From: an uncultured virus (IMG/VR IMGVR_UViG_3300015262_000011)
Lineage: Duplodnaviria; Heunggongvirae; Uroviricota; Caudoviricetes
Length of the DNA: 31,177 nt
Reading direction: 5' to 3' (one strand)
Virus record (IMG/VR): IMGVR_UViG_3300015262_000011
The notes under the pieces were generated by a model. That model saw nothing but the letters and a program-made list of their open reading frames with translations, was not told the origin of the DNA and searched no databases. A program made the translations under genes and the position numbers. Below are positions 1,522 through 29,680 of this stretch, one piece after another. How positions within the stretch are numbered: position 1 is the stretch's first letter; every line of letters begins with the position of its first letter.

Positions 1522-1842
1522 GTGACCTGTCCTGGTTGTGGTGGCGGGAATGTTCAGGATTTGCCGTTGTTCTGGCGGCAGCAGCATGAGGGTTCGTCGC
1601 CGTGGTTGCAGTACGGGCCGCCGTCGGTGCCGGAGTCGCGGATCTTGCTGGTGCTGGGGGTGGTCGCGGTGGGGATCGCCCTGATGGCGACGGGCTCGGT
1701 GCTGTTCGGTCTGTTGGCGGCGGTGGCTGGCTTGCTGTGGGGCGCCTTCGACCGGAAGACGGTGGCGGAGGCGCAGCAGCGGTTGGGCGACTGGAATGCG
1801 TCGAAGATTTGCCTGGCGTGCCCGCGGGTGTTCCTGCTGTAG
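1522..1842 (+). CDS. Two-TM membrane protein flanked by CxxC motifs (106 aa)
   Basis: VTCPGCGG...hydrophobic hairpin ILLVLGVVAVGIALMATGSVLFGLLAAVAGLLW...ICLACPRVF. Confidence 0.75.
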   Translation: MTCPGCGGGNVQDLPLFWRQQHEGSSPWLQYGPPSVPESRILLVLGVVAVGIALMATGSVLFGLLAAVAGLLWGAFDRKTVAEAQQRLGDWNASKICLACPRVFLL

Positions 1843-1899
1843 CCGGGCACGCCAGAAGGCCCGTACCGTACTCCGTAGCACCGACATTCGGAGGTTTCC

Positions 1900-2064
1900 G
1901 TGGATAAGCCCCTCATCCCCGCGCCCGTGCTTTCGCCGGAGGAGCGTTCTTCGTTGACGGCGTGGAGGCCGGGCTCGCCGCTGTTGTCGCGGGTGGTGCG
2001 GCCGGCGGAGACCGTGGGTGGTCCGGGGCGGGTGTCGGTGGCTGCGTTCCAGTCCGCGGTGTAG
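1900..2064 (+). CDS. FxSxx-COOH (FxsA-like) cyclophane RiPP precursor-like peptide, 54 aa
   Basis: RBS GGAGG then GTG; MDKPLIPAPVLSPEERSSLTAWRPGSPLLSRVVRPAETVGGPGRVSVAAFQSAV*; own terminator; below the ORF-track size cutoff. Confidence 0.75.
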   Translation: MDKPLIPAPVLSPEERSSLTAWRPGSPLLSRVVRPAETVGGPGRVSVAAFQSAV

Positions 2065-2077
2065 GCCCGGCGTGTGT

Positions 2078-2105
2078 GAGCCCCCTCCTGGTCGGGAGGG
2101 GGCTC
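2078..2105 (+). terminator. Terminator of the FxSxx peptide gene
   Basis: GAGCCCCCTCC-tggtcg-GGAGGGGGCTC followed by TCGTTGT. Confidence 0.8.
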
Positions 2106-2182
2106 TCGTTGTCTCCGGGGGCCTCTCGCCCCGCGCGGTGTGTGCTCCCCGGTGGGGAACCGCTGGTGCGGGAGGGTCCAGT

Positions 2183-2305: not shown

Positions 2306-2828
2306 AAGCACGGCGCTGTACCGGCTCTTCGATACGGCCCGGCAGCTGCTGTACGTCGGGATCACTAGCAACCCGCAGGCCCGGTGGGCTCAGCACGCGG
2401 CCGAGAAGCCGTGGTGGCCAGACGTGGCCTGGCACACCTTGGAGTGGCTGCCGTCCCGTGAGGCGGCGCTGGCCGCCGAGGCGGCTGCGATCGTGGCTGA
2501 TGGGCCGCTGCACAACGTCGCGGGCACGCCCCGGCAGCGTGAGGCAACCACGGCGTTCCACGGCGAGCACCACGAGGCGGCCGGGCACCCGGCGCTGGCC
2601 ACTGTGCGCCAGGCGTTGCGCGCGCTGGAGCGGATCGAGGACCCGGAAGAGCGGGCGCTGGTGACGACGGCGCTGCTGCGGGAGTGGCCGCGCTTGCACC
2701 GTGAGGTGAAGGAGGCGCGGCAGGACGCGGTGGTCGCGATGAACGAGGGTGGCGTGGACTTCGCGGCGATCGGCCGGCGCCTCGGTGTTGGCACGCAGCG
2801 CGCCGCTCACATCGCGCAGGGCAAGTAG
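2283..2828 (+). CDS. GIY-YIG nuclease domain fused to a C-terminal HTH
   Basis: ALYRLFD..QLLYVGIT.NPQARWAQH...ALAAE..AI...PLHN; C-terminus FAAIGRRLGVGTQRAAHIAQG. Confidence 0.85.
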   Translation: MTTISQDESTALYRLFDTARQLLYVGITSNPQARWAQHAAEKPWWPDVAWHTLEWLPSREAALAAEAAAIVADGPLHNVAGTPRQREATTAFHGEHHEAAGHPALATVRQALRALERIEDPEERALVTTALLREWPRLHREVKEARQDAVVAMNEGGVDFAAIGRRLGVGTQRAAHIAQGK

Positions 2829-2838
2829 CAGACGCGTC

Positions 2839-2882
2839 GACGCCCCGTCACCGGCCGTCGTCGGACGGGGTGACGGGGCGTC
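2839..2882. terminator. Bidirectional terminator at the convergence of the island and the early operon
   Basis: GACGCCCCGTCACC...GGTGACGGGGCGTC. Confidence 0.8.
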
Positions 2883-2894
2883 TGGCCTGCGTCG

Positions 2895-3134
2895 TCAGGC
2901 GTCGGGCGTCCGGGCGCAGTGACAGCCGCAGTTGCCGGTGGGCTCGGGCTGGCCGGTCTGCTGCGCGTGCTCGATGTCCTCGGGCCCGGCCCATGGGTGC
3001 GGCGTCGTGTCGTCGTAGTGGAAGCCGTACATGCAGGCCTCGCACTTGGCGTAGCAGATGATCGCCGGGCGCTCCCCTGCGAGTGCCTGCCGGAGCGCTT
3101 CGGCTTCCTCGGGGGTGGGGGTCTGGTCGGGCAT
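2895..3134 (-). CDS. Hypothetical Cys-rich protein (79 aa)
   Basis: RBS GAAGGG; CEAC and CGCHC motifs; last gene of the operon. Confidence 0.75.
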   Translation of the reverse strand: MPDQTPTPEEAEALRQALAGERPAIICYAKCEACMYGFHYDDTTPHPWAGPEDIEHAQQTGQPEPTGNCGCHCARTPDA

Positions 3135-4930: not shown

Positions 4931-5146
4931 TCAGGCGGGGCGGGTTGCGCGAAGGCAGGCCTGGCAGGTGACGGCGATGTCGTCACTGCCGGACAGGGGC
5001 CGGTCAAGCAGTCGGCCGCGCGCGTCGAAGAGCCGGACGAACTTGCCGCAGGCGGTGGTCATCGGCCGCGTGTGCGGGACGGGGACGTCGTGCACACGGG
5101 TGCCGCCGTGGAGGCGGATTCGGCGGGTGTCGGCGGTCTTGAACAT
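4931..5146 (-). CDS. Small His/Cys Zn-binding protein (71 aa)
   Basis: VH...TACG...VTCQAC; TGATG coupling. Confidence 0.75.
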   Translation of the reverse strand: MFKTADTRRIRLHGGTRVHDVPVPHTRPMTTACGKFVRLFDARGRLLDRPLSGSDDIAVTCQACLRATRPA

Positions 5147-5550
5147 CAGGCGGTGAACCTCCGGACGGGGATCCCGGCGCGTTCGGCCATGTCGGCGCAG
5201 CCGGACGCGCCGTGGGACGGGTGCGGGCGCGGTTTGCGGCAGCGGGAGCTGGTGCAGGGGCCGATGAACGCGAGCGCGATGTCCGCGCCGAGGTTGACCA
5301 TGTGCCGGTTGCGGATCGGCCCGGCGGCGCGCTGGTAGCGGTCCCAGTCGGCTTCGTGGACTTCGACGGTGGCGCCGTACTGGCGTGCCCAGAGGTCGGC
5401 GATCTGGTCGGCGCCCCAGCATCCGCCGTGGACGACGGTGACCTCGCGGTCGGCGGGCAGGTCGCGGACGGCGTCGGCGAGGGCGGCGTGGATGGTGTCG
5501 CGGTCGCGCCATCGGCGGCTGCCGGTGATCAGGATCCGGTAGGGCTTCAC
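5146..5550 (-). CDS. SLOG/YspA-like (DUF2493) nucleotide-binding protein
   Basis: RILITGSR.W.D; VVHGG..GAD; AAGPIRN..MV; HGASGC..MA. Confidence 0.9.
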   Translation of the reverse strand: MKPYRILITGSRRWRDRDTIHAALADAVRDLPADREVTVVHGGCWGADQIADLWARQYGATVEVHEADWDRYQRAAGPIRNRHMVNLGADIALAFIGPCTSSRCRKPRPHPSHGASGCADMAERAGIPVRRFTA

Positions 5551-7075: not shown

Positions 7076-7593
7076 TCGCCCGTCTCGACGGCCGGCACGG
7101 CAGCGGCGCGCACATGTGGCGGCTCGCAGTCCTCAGCGCCCGCGAGGCGACCCGTCGGGCACGGATACGGCACCAGGCCGTCGCCGCCCGCCGCAGCCGC
7201 GTCGGCGTTGATGCAGACCGGGCAGGGGCCCATCGGGGAGTCCTTGTGCAGGTGCCGGATCTCGGTAAGGGCGGCGCGGAGGCGGCGCACCTCGGCGACG
7301 AGCGCGTCGGCGTCCTCGCGGGCGTGAGCGATGAACTCGGCGTCGGCCTGGACCTGCGCCCAGTCCTCCTCCGCCTCCCACTCGCGGTGCGCCGGGTCGT
7401 TGTCGAGGGGCTCCTCGTCGAGGCGGCAGATCCCCCGGCGGGCGGTGTAGCCGGTGCCGGTGTCCTGAAGGTCGGCCGCGATCTCAATGAGGCTGTCGCC
7501 GCCGTACTGGTAGACGCCCCACGGCCCCTTGGTGGCTGCGTTGGCGCGGGTTTCGATCTCGTCGAGCTGCTGGTCGCTGATGGGTGTGGTCAC
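7072..7593 (-). CDS. Ead/Ea22-like phage protein
   Basis: LDEIE.RA.AAT.GPW...DAEFIAHARED...L.AEVRRL; C-terminal CxxC..YPCPT. Confidence 0.85.
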   Translation of the reverse strand: MTTPISDQQLDEIETRANAATKGPWGVYQYGGDSLIEIAADLQDTGTGYTARRGICRLDEEPLDNDPAHREWEAEEDWAQVQADAEFIAHAREDADALVAEVRRLRAALTEIRHLHKDSPMGPCPVCINADAAAAGGDGLVPYPCPTGRLAGAEDCEPPHVRAAAVPAVETGE

Positions 7594-7640
7594 GGGGTTC
7601 TCCTCGGGTTGTTGGTGCGGGGACGGGAACAGCAGGAACA

Positions 7641-8066
7641 TCAGGCGGGGTCGGCGGCTGCGGCGCGGATGGTGAACTCGCCGAACCCGTCGCGGTGGAT
7701 CACGTCGCCGGGGTGGGCGTAGACCGTCTCGCCGAACTGGCTGAACCCGACCAGTTCGTTGGCGCCTCCTGCACGCCAGCCGCCACACCACTCGGCGATC
7801 TCGGTGGTGTTGTCGCGGGCGAGGGTGCGCTCCTCCGGCGCGTAGTCGAGGTGCGGGACCCCGGCCATGCACATGGCGCCGCAGTAGCCGCACCGGTACT
7901 GGCCCATCGGGGCGCCGACCAACTGCTGCGGCTCCCACGGCCAGGGGCAGCGTTCACCGTTCTCGTTGAGCGGGGCGGTGATGTCGAGCCGCTTCGTCAG
8001 GTCGATGTCGAGGGCGTCCTTGGGGGCGATGTCGGTCCACTTGCGGCTGGCGTCAGGCGCGGTCAT
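7641..8066 (-). CDS. Hypothetical protein: CxxC N-terminal half plus WCGG/PGD/GEF module
   Basis: GQYRCGYCG; IAEWCGG...AHPGDVIHRDGFGEF. Confidence 0.8.
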   Translation of the reverse strand: MTAPDASRKWTDIAPKDALDIDLTKRLDITAPLNENGERCPWPWEPQQLVGAPMGQYRCGYCGAMCMAGVPHLDYAPEERTLARDNTTEIAEWCGGWRAGGANELVGFSQFGETVYAHPGDVIHRDGFGEFTIRAAAADPA

Positions 8067-8262
8067 GGGTTGTCCGTTTCGTGTCGTATGGGTGGCCGTG
8101 AGGCGGCCTTCCCAGTTGGCGGGGCGGTGGGCGTTGGGACGGAGCGTTGGTCAGGCGGCGGCCGGGGTGCGGCAGGCGACGGATGGCCGCTGCCGCCGAA
8201 GGTCAATTCCTCCCGGTTTGCCGCTACTTGTCAGAATATCGACCGAGCCTTCCGGTAAGGGC

Positions 8263-11166: not shown

Positions 11167-11167
<1 letters not shown>
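10895..11167 (-). CDS. Hypothetical protein downstream of dnaB (~90 aa)
   Basis: TGATG coupling on both sides; EDIAALRADGDL, GGWPLGT, CTCARC. Confidence 0.75.
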
Positions 11168-12542
<1,375 letters not shown>

Positions 12543-12546
<4 letters not shown>

Positions 12547-13253
12547 GCGGCCCTCCGTCGACGGTCGTTGCCCTTCATCGGGATCCGCTCGCACATCTCC
12601 GCGAGCCGGCTGGTGACCCGGTCGCCGAGGCGTTCGGCCAACTGCTTCGGCTCAACGTTCGAGGTGAGGAGGGTCGGCATGTGGTGCTCGTACCGGTGGT
12701 TGATGAGCCGGAAGTTGACCTCTTCCGTGAACTCGGTCGGCTTGCGTTCCGCGCCCAAGTCGTCGACGAACAGCAGGCGGGCGTCGCGGTACTTGCGGAA
12801 TTCGGCTTCCGAGTCGACGCCGTACCGGGGTCGCAGTGCCGCGTACAGGTCGGCGGCGGTGGTCACCTGCCACTGGGCGTACACGCCGGACACGGCCAGC
12901 TCTCGCATGGCGCCGTAGGCCTCGTGGGTCTTGCCGACGCCGCACACTCCGAGCAGCAGCAGCGAGGGGCCGTTGATGATGCTGGCGATCGGGCCGCCTC
13001 GTTCGGCCTGCTTCTCGCGGGCCACGGCGACCAGGCCGTCGATCCAGGTACGCAACTGCGGCAGCGAGGCGACAGCGGTCCGGTAGTGGAACGGAACCTT
13101 CGCCATGGTCTCGGCGTAAGCGTTGCGGGCCACGTTCGCCGTGGAGTGCGGGTCAAAGTCGTGCAGGTTGAACCAGTCGGCGGCCAGGCCGCGGGCGGCG
13201 AGCAAGGGCTCGATGTCGTGGCCGCGGAGGTTCGCGGGCGGGATGTACTGCAT
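12543..13253 (-). CDS. DnaC/IstB-like AAA+ helicase loader
   Basis: Walker A GVCGVGKT, LLFVDDLGAE, TSN, LGDRVTSRL. Confidence 0.93.
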
Positions 13254-14220: not shown

Positions 14221-14272
14221 AATTGTACAACGCGACGGAGATTACAACAGGGCTTATGTGTATCCTGGTCGC
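14221..14272. promoter_or_regulatory. Divergent promoters for the replication operon and the phd-like gene
   Basis: Minus strand TTG-TACAAT at about 14222-14230; plus strand TATCCT-N6-ATG; TACAAC repeats. Confidence 0.55.
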
Positions 14273-14572
14273 ATGAGCCAGTCCAAGGTGGAGCAGATGG
14301 GCGTGTCCGACGCGCGCGCCAACCTGACCGAGGTCATCGCCAAGGTGCGTCTCCTCGGCCAGCCCGTCGCGCTCACGCGCCGGGACAAGCCGCAGGCCAT
14401 GCTCATCTCCATGGACCGCTGGAAGCAGGCCTGCCTCGACGCCGAAGTCCGACCGCTGTGGGAGTTCTTCTCGGAGCGGTTGAACGTCCTCTATCGGGAC
14501 CCTGAGTTCCGGGATCTGCTTGAGCGCAAGGACGTTGAGTTGCTCGAAGTGATTTCCGACGGCGGCCACTGA
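14273..14572 (+). CDS. Orphan Phd/YefM-family antitoxin-like DNA-binding protein
   Basis: MGVSDARANLTEVIAKV....PVALTRRDKPQAMLIS. Confidence 0.9.
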   Translation: MSQSKVEQMGVSDARANLTEVIAKVRLLGQPVALTRRDKPQAMLISMDRWKQACLDAEVRPLWEFFSERLNVLYRDPEFRDLLERKDVELLEVISDGGH

Positions 14573-28306: not shown

Positions 28307-28387
28307 CAATGAGACCGGACGAACACGCCGCACCCCCACCGGCGTTACCGGCCAAGTCCTGCCCGTTGCGTATCCGTGAGGTGGACG

Positions 28388-29680
28388 ATGGCGCACGCCG
28401 AGAGGCGCACCTATGACAAGCGGGCCCGAAAGTGGCGCTACCGAGGCCGGTACAAGCTGCCCAACGGCAAGTGGGGCTCCGTCTCCCGCGACGAGAACAA
28501 CCAGCCCTTCTACACCGAGCGTGCTGCCGAACAGTACGCGCACGGACTCGAAGTCGACGTTCGACGCAAGCAGTTCATCAATCCCCGCGACGGGAAGCTC
28601 ACCGTCACCGAGTGGGCCGAGAAATGGCTGCCATCCATCGACGTCGGCCCGCTCAGCGAGAAGGAGTACCGGCTGCGACTGAAGAACCAGATCCTCCCCC
28701 AGTGGGGGGACGTTGCCGTCGGTGACCTCTCGCCGACAGCCATCGCCGCCTGGGAGAAGCACCTGCGGGCCGGCCTCTCGAAGAACTACGCCGACAACGT
28801 CATGTCGACGTTCCGCACGATGATGGATGATGCGGTCGCCGAGAAACTGCGCGGCGACAACCCCGTCGCCGCCCGCAAGTCGGGCCGTCGCGGCAGGTAC
28901 AAACCGAAGCCGAAGGACGAGAAGGTCATCGCCACGCCCCGCCAGGCCCTGCTCGTCGCCCGCAACGCGCTGGAGATGCGCGGCCTGAACGAGTACGCAA
29001 TCGTCCTCACCTCCGCGTACACAGGCCTGCGGATCGGCGAGCTGGCCGGCGTCCACCGCGACCAGTTGGCCCTAGGCGACAACGGCCAGGGCGCCCGCCT
29101 GCACTCGGTGCAGCAGAGTCAGTATGTGGGCGGCCAGTTCACGGAGATCGACAACAAGTACGACTCTGGCCGCGGCCTCATCCTGCCGCCGTTCCTCGCC
29201 GGCCTGCTCCGGCAGCTTCTGACCTACCGCCCCGGTTCAGAGTGGGTGTTCAGCGCCCCCAAGGGCGGTCGCCTCCTGCGGGGCGGCGACTGGTACACCG
29301 ACACCTGGCAGCCGATCGTGTCCGGCCGGGCGCCGCGCGGTGTCGTCCGCGGGGCGAGGGAACGCGTCGGCATCCGGCCCGTGACGGGCATCGAGGGCCT
29401 CACGCCGCACGGTCTGCGCCACTCCCACAAGGTCTGGCTGGACGAGGGGAATCACCCTAGAGTTGCCGTTGAGGCGCGGATGGGGCATGTGCTCCAGGGC
29501 GTCGAGGGCACCTACTCGCATGTGACACTGGCGATGGAGCTGGCGATCGCCGAGTACCTCCAGCGGCTGTGGGAGGACTCGTTGAGGGTCGTCACGGACC
29601 GCCGCGAGTTCGGCCCGTATCCCCCACTGAAGCCCTCCCGTAAGAAACGATCTCCCAATCGTCTCCCAAACCCCGTTTGA
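28388..29680 (+). CDS. int: Tyrosine integrase
   Basis: N-terminal arm-binding region; TGLRIGEL, HGLRH, MGH and catalytic Tyr in TYSH. Confidence 0.96.
   Translation: MAHAERRTYDKRARKWRYRGRYKLPNGKWGSVSRDENNQPFYTERAAEQYAHGLEVDVRRKQFINPRDGKLTVTEWAEKWLPSIDVGPLSEKEYRLRLKNQILPQWGDVAVGDLSPTAIAAWEKHLRAGLSKNYADNVMSTFRTMMDDAVAEKLRGDNPVAARKSGRRGRYKPKPKDEKVIATPRQALLVARNALEMRGLNEYAIVLTSAYTGLRIGELAGVHRDQLALGDNGQGARLHSVQQSQYVGGQFTEIDNKYDSGRGLILPPFLAGLLRQLLTYRPGSEWVFSAPKGGRLLRGGDWYTDTWQPIVSGRAPRGVVRGARERVGIRPVTGIEGLTPHGLRHSHKVWLDEGNHPRVAVEARMGHVLQGVEGTYSHVTLAMELAIAEYLQRLWEDSLRVVTDRREFGPYPPLKPSRKKRSPNRLPNPV

Follow-up and report, generated by a model that had tools for sequence, protein, structure and literature searches.

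An FxsA-like peptide gene that recurs in phages and prophages without its maturase gene

The stretch of DNA analysed here, 31,177 nucleotides of an uncultured virus (hereafter the window), carries a 54-codon gene whose product is, judged by its sequence, a diverged FxsA by descent. Such genes, here called orphans for their lack of a neighbouring fxsB, recur in otherwise unrelated phages and prophages. As read from the sequences, the most likely explanation is that the phage peptide depends on the FxsB maturase of the host and manipulates the host FxsC/FxsT module of TIR and ParA-STAND-TPR proteins.

The peptide gene occupies positions 1900-2064 of the plus strand, beginning with GTG and ending with TAG at 2062-2064, and an in-frame TAG at 1876-1878 bounds the frame upstream. 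A GGAGG ribosome-binding site at 1890-1894 (+) is separated from the start codon by a 5-nt spacer, and the translation ends in ...GPGRVSVAAFQSAV, that is, in ...RVSVAAFQSAV; the 54-residue frame, its ribosome-binding site and its C-terminus are exactly as the original prediction had described them. The last five residues before the stop, FQSAV, have the form F-x-S-x-x. Within the core GPGRVSVAAFQSAV (2020-2061, +), Phe50 (2047-2049) and Ser52 (2053-2055) occupy the cross-link positions of FxsB-family enzymes. In a window of 69% GC, the GC content at third codon positions of the frame is 0.87, as compared to 0.70 at position 1 and 0.61 at position 2, and across 1861-2100 third-position GC is highest of the three frames in that of the ORF itself. 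This peak rules out the other-frame and opposite-strand ORFs that overlap 1900-2064. The peptide gene showed no variants among contigs from four DNA sequencing runs.

Homology to FxsA was assessed with a profile built from 12 peptides, all of which have fxsB directly downstream; nine of these peptides were drawn from Streptomyces genomes and three from metagenome contigs, and the window peptide was left out. The window and three phage loci, translated in six frames, gave 1352 segments for a search with this linked-FxsA profile. Here the ORF of the window scored 33.3 bits (E 3.9e-9) over positions 36-65 of 65, reaching the C-terminus, as compared to 9.9 bits for the runner-up segment of the window, a difference that rules out a chance ORF. 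Alignments agree with this result. A three-way peptide alignment has 20 invariant columns and identity throughout the final eight residues, while AAFQS is invariant across all 23 peptides aligned. The core shares 13 of its 14 residues with FxsA of the S. canus group, and a peptide ending RVSVAAFQSAV was found in S. canus 299MFChir4.1 by scanning the contigs of that genome. The profile score and the alignments together uphold the FxsA-like identity that had been proposed for the phage peptide.

The curated FxSxx-COOH model, TIGR04268, had also been proposed as a test of this identity, and here the outcome was sub-threshold: the window peptide scores 13.2 bits (E 0.082), over residues 40-54 only, against a curated cut-off of 28 bits. 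Six-frame translation of one Streptomyces genome gives 43 chance matches to this model at 10.5-17.9 bits, and therefore the score of the window peptide, taken alone, is at the level of noise. None of the 43 chance matches extends to the C-terminal end of the profile. On the same model, the fxsB-linked FxsA of S. canus scores 29.9 bits, and the orphan from a phage locus designated L003 scores 25.0 bits. Judged by this cut-off, and equally by its lack of a linked fxsB, the window peptide falls outside the TIGR04268 family.

Broader searches returned no close relatives. No Pfam family was assigned to the window peptide, and a word-indexed search of 5.8 billion proteins gave no candidate. Exhaustive phmmer against 1.84 billion representatives produced four matches, each in multiple stretches and to proteins of 498-2185 aa, which were judged compositional. 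In tblastn against 50,697 phage records, the window peptide and that of a Streptomyces prophage (L035) gave matches at chance level (E>=0.7), none of which came from Streptomyces. With regard to the proposed check on the terminal F-x-S-x-x, the motif is conserved throughout the aligned peptides; the phage records yielded chance matches. A tblastx comparison of the window with the S. canus-type L002 locus and with L003 gave uninformative noise in this high-GC DNA.

Comparison at the codon level separates the core of the peptide from its leader. Over the last 14 codons, the window gene differs from three fxsB-linked genes (L012, L013 and L014) by 8-10 synonymous changes and one non-synonymous change (Fisher p 9e-5 to 2e-6). 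This contrast therefore shows, as far as codon substitutions can, that the ORF is translated and that its core is under purifying selection. The synonymous sites are near saturation, and hence the gene is not a recent capture of host DNA; DNA identity between the window and host fxsA extends over 41 nt only, where it is 80%, and no relationship is seen in the flanks. The leader is about ten residues shorter than that of linked FxsA and lies outside the linked-FxsA profile match. Its remnant, PEERSSLTAWR (1939-1971, +), is in the alignments the counterpart of the GPERVPLVRLAAR motif of fxsB-linked FxsA: where the linked peptides have G-P-E-R-V-P-L-V-R-L-A-A-R, the window peptide reads P-E-E-R-S-S-L-T-A-W-R, so that E-R-x-x-L and the last R are all that is retained. 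Because the leader is eroded in this way (ERVPLxRLA to EERSSLTAW) and the window peptide has a branch length of 1.11, the second longest in a tree of 23 peptides, recognition of this particular copy by FxsB is doubtful.

The long branch and the eroded leader would also be expected if the window copy were a piece of host fxsA that the phage had picked up and carried along neutrally or in decay, and that is not, or is no longer, functional. Such a reading could further draw on the whole-gene dN/dS of 0.59-0.83 between the window gene and the other orphans, and on the lack of a close homologue in the large protein searches. It is nevertheless improbable: the frame, start codon, ribosome-binding site and stop codon are all intact, the core carries the synonymous excess described above, the resemblance to host fxsA DNA is confined to its short stretch between unrelated flanks, and the cis-elements discussed below are kept across the orphans.

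Orphan fxsA-like genes were found on at least 13 metagenome contigs, as well as in one prophage of Streptomyces and two viruses from IMG/VR. L003 is an 80-kb IMG/VR provirus (CheckV 81%) in whose record fxsB was not found, and its DNA similarity to the window is limited to window positions 1970-2062 (78%). Similarly, fxsB was not found in L038, a 73-kb IMG/VR virus (CheckV 84%) with an orphan copy. L039 is an IMG/VR contig in which the orphan copy is ended by the contig edge. The L035 orphan lies in a Streptomyces prophage (L037) among RusA, WhiB, replication-initiator and DnaC-like genes; the genome that harbors it also has a canonical fxsA-fxsB pair (L017) and at least two FxsB proteins above the cut-off. 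Among the metagenome loci, fxsB is directly downstream in 4 of 17 and absent from the other 13, of which six have more than 600 nt of downstream sequence and four end at or near the stop codon. A survey of 401 Streptomyces genomes, made with a profile that included the window peptide and with 16 candidates scored per genome, revealed at least 10 real loci of window-type FxsA, nine of them linked to fxsB and one the prophage orphan. The neighbours of the orphans vary between phages.

The window represents part of an element and is without structural genes, and the maturase might accordingly be sought elsewhere in the same element, beyond the 31 kb, with the peptide gene as the cargo of a separated fxsA/fxsB pair. 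An exact-match search of IMG/VR with the window, which might have extended the element, gave no match. We consider a separated pair quite unlikely. In all of the linked loci compared, the start of fxsB lies within approximately 40-70 nt of the fxsA stop; the largely complete L003 and L038 records (80 kb at 81% and 73 kb at 84%) hold orphans and no fxsB; and the orphans possess a terminator hairpin of their own.

The expression signals around the window gene illustrate this last point. A TACCGT hexamer at 1864-1869 (+), 36 nt ahead of the GTG, is a candidate -10 element. At 2078-2105 (+), 14 nt past the stop, a perfect GC-rich stem of 12 bp closed by a GGTC loop forms a terminator-like hairpin. 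The segment 2062-2125 folds at -41 kcal/mol (z -3.5), with none of 200 shuffles equally stable, and the strong terminator that had been predicted here accordingly corresponds to a GC hairpin with no T-run. A scan for consensus promoters and terminators returned 0 sites, and the hairpin went uncalled because it lacks a T-run. With regard to the predicted -10 element, the scan recognized no sigma-70-like promoter, whereas the hexamer itself proved to be conserved upstream of other orphans.

Both elements distinguish the orphans from the linked genes. In the following loci a GC hairpin of 10-17 bp begins no more than about 20 nt past the stop: the window, L003, L035, L038, L040, L042, L047, L050 and L056, with weaker folds in L054, L055 and L051, whereas the linked L012, L015 and L019 have no hairpin after the stop and run directly into fxsB. 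Ten of 11 orphans (7 of 8 lineages) have the hexamer, in the form TAC[CG]GT, at a distance of 13-41 nt before the start codon, whereas none of the 12 fxsB-linked fxsA genes has it in the preceding 200 nt; against a background of 1.6e-4 per position, the binomial probability is about 7e-15, for a motif that was widened post hoc to include TACGGT. Its position is -36 to -41, except for L003 and L043, where it stands at -13, the spacing expected for leaderless mRNAs. Within the loci compared, these differences show the hairpin and the hexamer to be putative cis-elements specific to orphans. In L003 (5913-5928) and L043, 7 nt separate the hexamer from the ATG and a Shine-Dalgarno sequence is lacking, which is the geometry of a leaderless transcript.

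The orphans also differ in the peptides that they encode, which have 51-62 residues as compared to 64-66 for the linked peptides and are missing the acidic EEPGK segment. In the 23-peptide tree, the orphan/linked label requires two changes, whereas shuffled labels require 8.0 on average and none of 500 shuffles was as low, a statistic that is inflated by near-copies in a tree with most branches unsupported. Left out of this tree were L039, L046, L052, L054 and L056, which are incomplete, and L045, L048 and L050, which are identical to retained rows. The lineage of L054 and L055 has the longest branch, ends in FQSCV instead of FQS[AS]V, and is without TAC[CG]GT.

The R-V-P-L...L leader motif of linked FxsA is retained in 8 of 11 orphans, which suggests selection for recognition as a maturase substrate in the group. 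This retention also argues against a peptide that acts without modification by FxsB, whether as a ligand or blocker of the FxsT TPR sensor or the HExxH hydroxylase, or as a dead-end inhibitor of FxsB, such that the free C-terminal tail alone would matter. In favor of such an unmodified ligand are the contrast in the window peptide between an eroded leader and a last 14 residues under strong constraint, the shortening of the leader in all orphans, and the presence of a TPR protein (NF040586) at the host locus; on balance, it appears unlikely.

The families identified in the window with PHROGs and Pfam, among up to 42 ORFs, are those of a lysogeny/replication module. They comprise a tyrosine integrase (28376-29680), DnaB (11167-12594), a GIY-YIG endonuclease (2283-2828), two HTH regulators, a DnaC/IstB-like loader, a beta-clamp-like protein, a PDDEXK exonuclease, a C5 methyltransferase, a SLOG/YAcAr protein and a GerE regulator; structural genes were not found among these ORFs in either database. 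The window thus covers the lysogeny and replication genes of a temperate actinophage or a prophage, and its DNA is present in rhizosphere metagenome runs. As had been claimed for fxsB, fxsC and fxsT, none was detected: tblastn of the 31-kb window at E<=1e-5 found no fxsB, and Pfam assigned none of the radical SAM, TIR and TPR families to any of the 42 window proteins.

Given that the gene is small, has expression signals of its own and lies in the lysogeny region of temperate phages, it might alternatively encode an arbitrium-style phage-phage communication peptide, built on an FxsA scaffold and sensed by a phage receptor. This is highly improbable, as there is no TPR or receptor-like family among the 42 window proteins, the neighbours differ between phages, and the core is of the host FxsA type instead of being specific to phages.

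The host machinery with which the peptide could interact is illustrated by the S. canus locus, in which the gene order is fxsA, fxsB, TIR-like fxsC and a KGGVGR-ATPase/FxSxx_TPR gene. FxsB from this locus scores 586.7 bits on TIGR04269 and has a C-terminal HExxH hydroxylase domain, FxsC scores 220.8 bits on NF040588 and 191.9 bits on TIGR04276, and the TPR protein belongs to NF040586. The host architecture that the original prediction had described, with fxsB, a TIR-like FxsC and a TPR protein, is therefore seen in this genome. FxsB is above the cut-off in 261 of the 401 sampled Streptomyces genomes. PADLOC, applied to the peptide, its neighbours, FxsB, FxsC and FxsT, contains no Fxs model and returned generic pVip and PDC-M28B matches only.

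For one FxsB-family enzyme, MscB, the available text of PMC11002830 describes a bond between C4 of Phe and the C-beta of Ser at positions i and i+2. In the accessible part of a 2026 preprint (10.64898/2026.10.19.760177), which makes no mention of phage-borne FxsA, FxsC is predicted to have the NAD-degrading activity of a functional TIR and FxsT to combine ParA with an inactive TIR, the two being assigned to predicted 'TIR-ParA apoptosis' systems of cell-suicide immunity, and the FxsAB peptide is proposed to serve either as an antiviral molecule or as a diffusible alarm signal. The host loci of the closest FxsA relatives encode FxsC together with the KGGVGR ParA-like ATPase/FxSxx_TPR protein, in keeping with the systems outlined there; FxsC and FxsT proteins were not found in the window.

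Since the phage has no maturase and FxsB is common in its likely hosts, the peptide is probably made for recognition by the host Fxs machinery. The chances seem evenly balanced that the gene is a self-contained, moron-like phage cassette whose peptide is recognized by that machinery and alters the output of FxsC/FxsT. The cassette would consist of the -10-like hexamer, the ribosome-binding site, the 54-codon ORF and the hairpin; its moron-type anatomy, with its own -10-like element, its own terminator and variable neighbours, would suggest expression from the prophage. Host FxsB would then most likely cross-link Phe50 to Ser52 of the phage peptide in trans, or at least bind the peptide, and the matured product, or competition with the host peptide, would shift the output of the FxsC/FxsT module. 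In infection or lysogeny, the phage peptide might in this way supply or mimic the host peptide, serving as an antidote, a decoy or a false signal.

A more specific proposal, that host FxsB matures the orphan mimic and that the product silences the FxsC/FxsT TIR-ParA-STAND suicide system or jams its alarm, is tentative and somewhat doubtful. Should it hold, a hijacked RiPP precursor would for the first time be seen to serve a virus as an anti-immune factor, and the FxsA peptide would be the control ligand of the FxsC/FxsT immune system. Maturation in trans would in itself provide a natural case of a virus exploiting a RiPP maturase of its host. Fxs loci are very common in Streptomyces, and while the Phe-Ser cyclophane chemistry is established, the immune role of the linked TIR and ParA-STAND genes has only been predicted. 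The repeated retention by phages of the precursor alone, with a constrained core and its own signals, offers independent evolutionary evidence that the Fxs peptide is of importance in phage-host conflict, and a gene of 54 codons would be a simple handle on the Fxs system.

The phage peptide has the same F-x-S-x-x-COOH end as the FxsA/FxsB triceptides of Actinomycetota (MscA/MscB, SjiA/SjiB; TIGR04268/TIGR04269). However, host fxsA adjoins fxsB, whereas the phage gene is without fxsB, fxsC and fxsT in the 31-kb window, and the phage copy has a hairpin terminator of its own and a hexamer that is missing from chromosomal copies. In phage morons, or lysogenic-conversion cassettes, a single small gene lies between a promoter-like element and a factor-independent terminator, and the phage fxsA-like gene is likewise bracketed by hexamer and hairpin, with different neighbours in each phage. 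The cargo in this case would be a RiPP precursor that requires a host enzyme, a type of moron not described in the literature searched. Nor was a description of phage-borne FxsA or triceptide precursors found in that literature, which held few subscription journals and no supplements.

Phages are known to encode mimics of host antitoxins, such as the pseudo-ToxI RNA and Dmd of T4. By analogy, the logic could be shared, with a phage copy of a small host component keeping a suicide system silent; the class of molecule differs, the phage fxsA product being a putative post-translationally modified peptide. A further actinomycete RiPP tied to phage conflict is Lanthiphage, which the available portion of its report describes as Streptomyces RiPP anti-phage clusters that often reside on prophages (bioRxiv 10.1101/2024.06.26.600839). 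As presented there, these are complete clusters of precursor and LanB/LanC that defend the host, whereas here the precursor alone is phage-borne and belongs to a different RiPP class.

Several features of the neighbouring DNA were also observed. A SLOG/YAcAr protein (PF10686; phrog_289 and phrog_16939) is encoded at 5146-5550 (-) in the window and at 7514-8134 (-) in L038; as SLOG and GIY-YIG genes are common to both, there is a shared module near the peptide gene, in a different gene order. A NUDIX/MutT hydrolase (phrog_1198) is encoded within 1-3 kb of the orphan in L003 (4068-4565), L038 (2563-2976) and L054 (948-1364), three elements that differ in other respects, and was not found in the window. 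In three rhizosphere runs, other contigs of 2-11 kb match the window in the 43-nt core alone (2020-2062), with four mismatches, and their flanks resemble the L051-type orphan; therefore, several orphan-carrying elements co-occur in the same samples.

Within the window, a gene for a Phd/YefM-type antitoxin-like protein at 14258-14572 (+) lies inside a long minus-strand replication operon, and no toxin partner for it was identified. Directly 5' of the peptide gene, at 1537-1842 (+), is a gene for a protein of about 100 residues with CxxC...CxxC ends and two hydrophobic segments, which suggest that it is a membrane protein with a zinc ribbon; Pfam, PHROGs and PADLOC assign it to no family, and its gene is not kept beside other orphans. 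When the window was compared with the 50,697 phage records by megablast and blastn, the sole match, which lies off the peptide gene, was to Streptomyces phage OnionKnight. The resemblance spans window positions 2572-2901, where the GIY-YIG gene ends and is followed by a hairpin region (2828-2901), with an identity of 76% over about 330 nt and of 93% over 74 nt. In OnionKnight, the counterpart is gp56, annotated as 'DNA binding protein', together with the intergenic terminator between gp56 and gp55.
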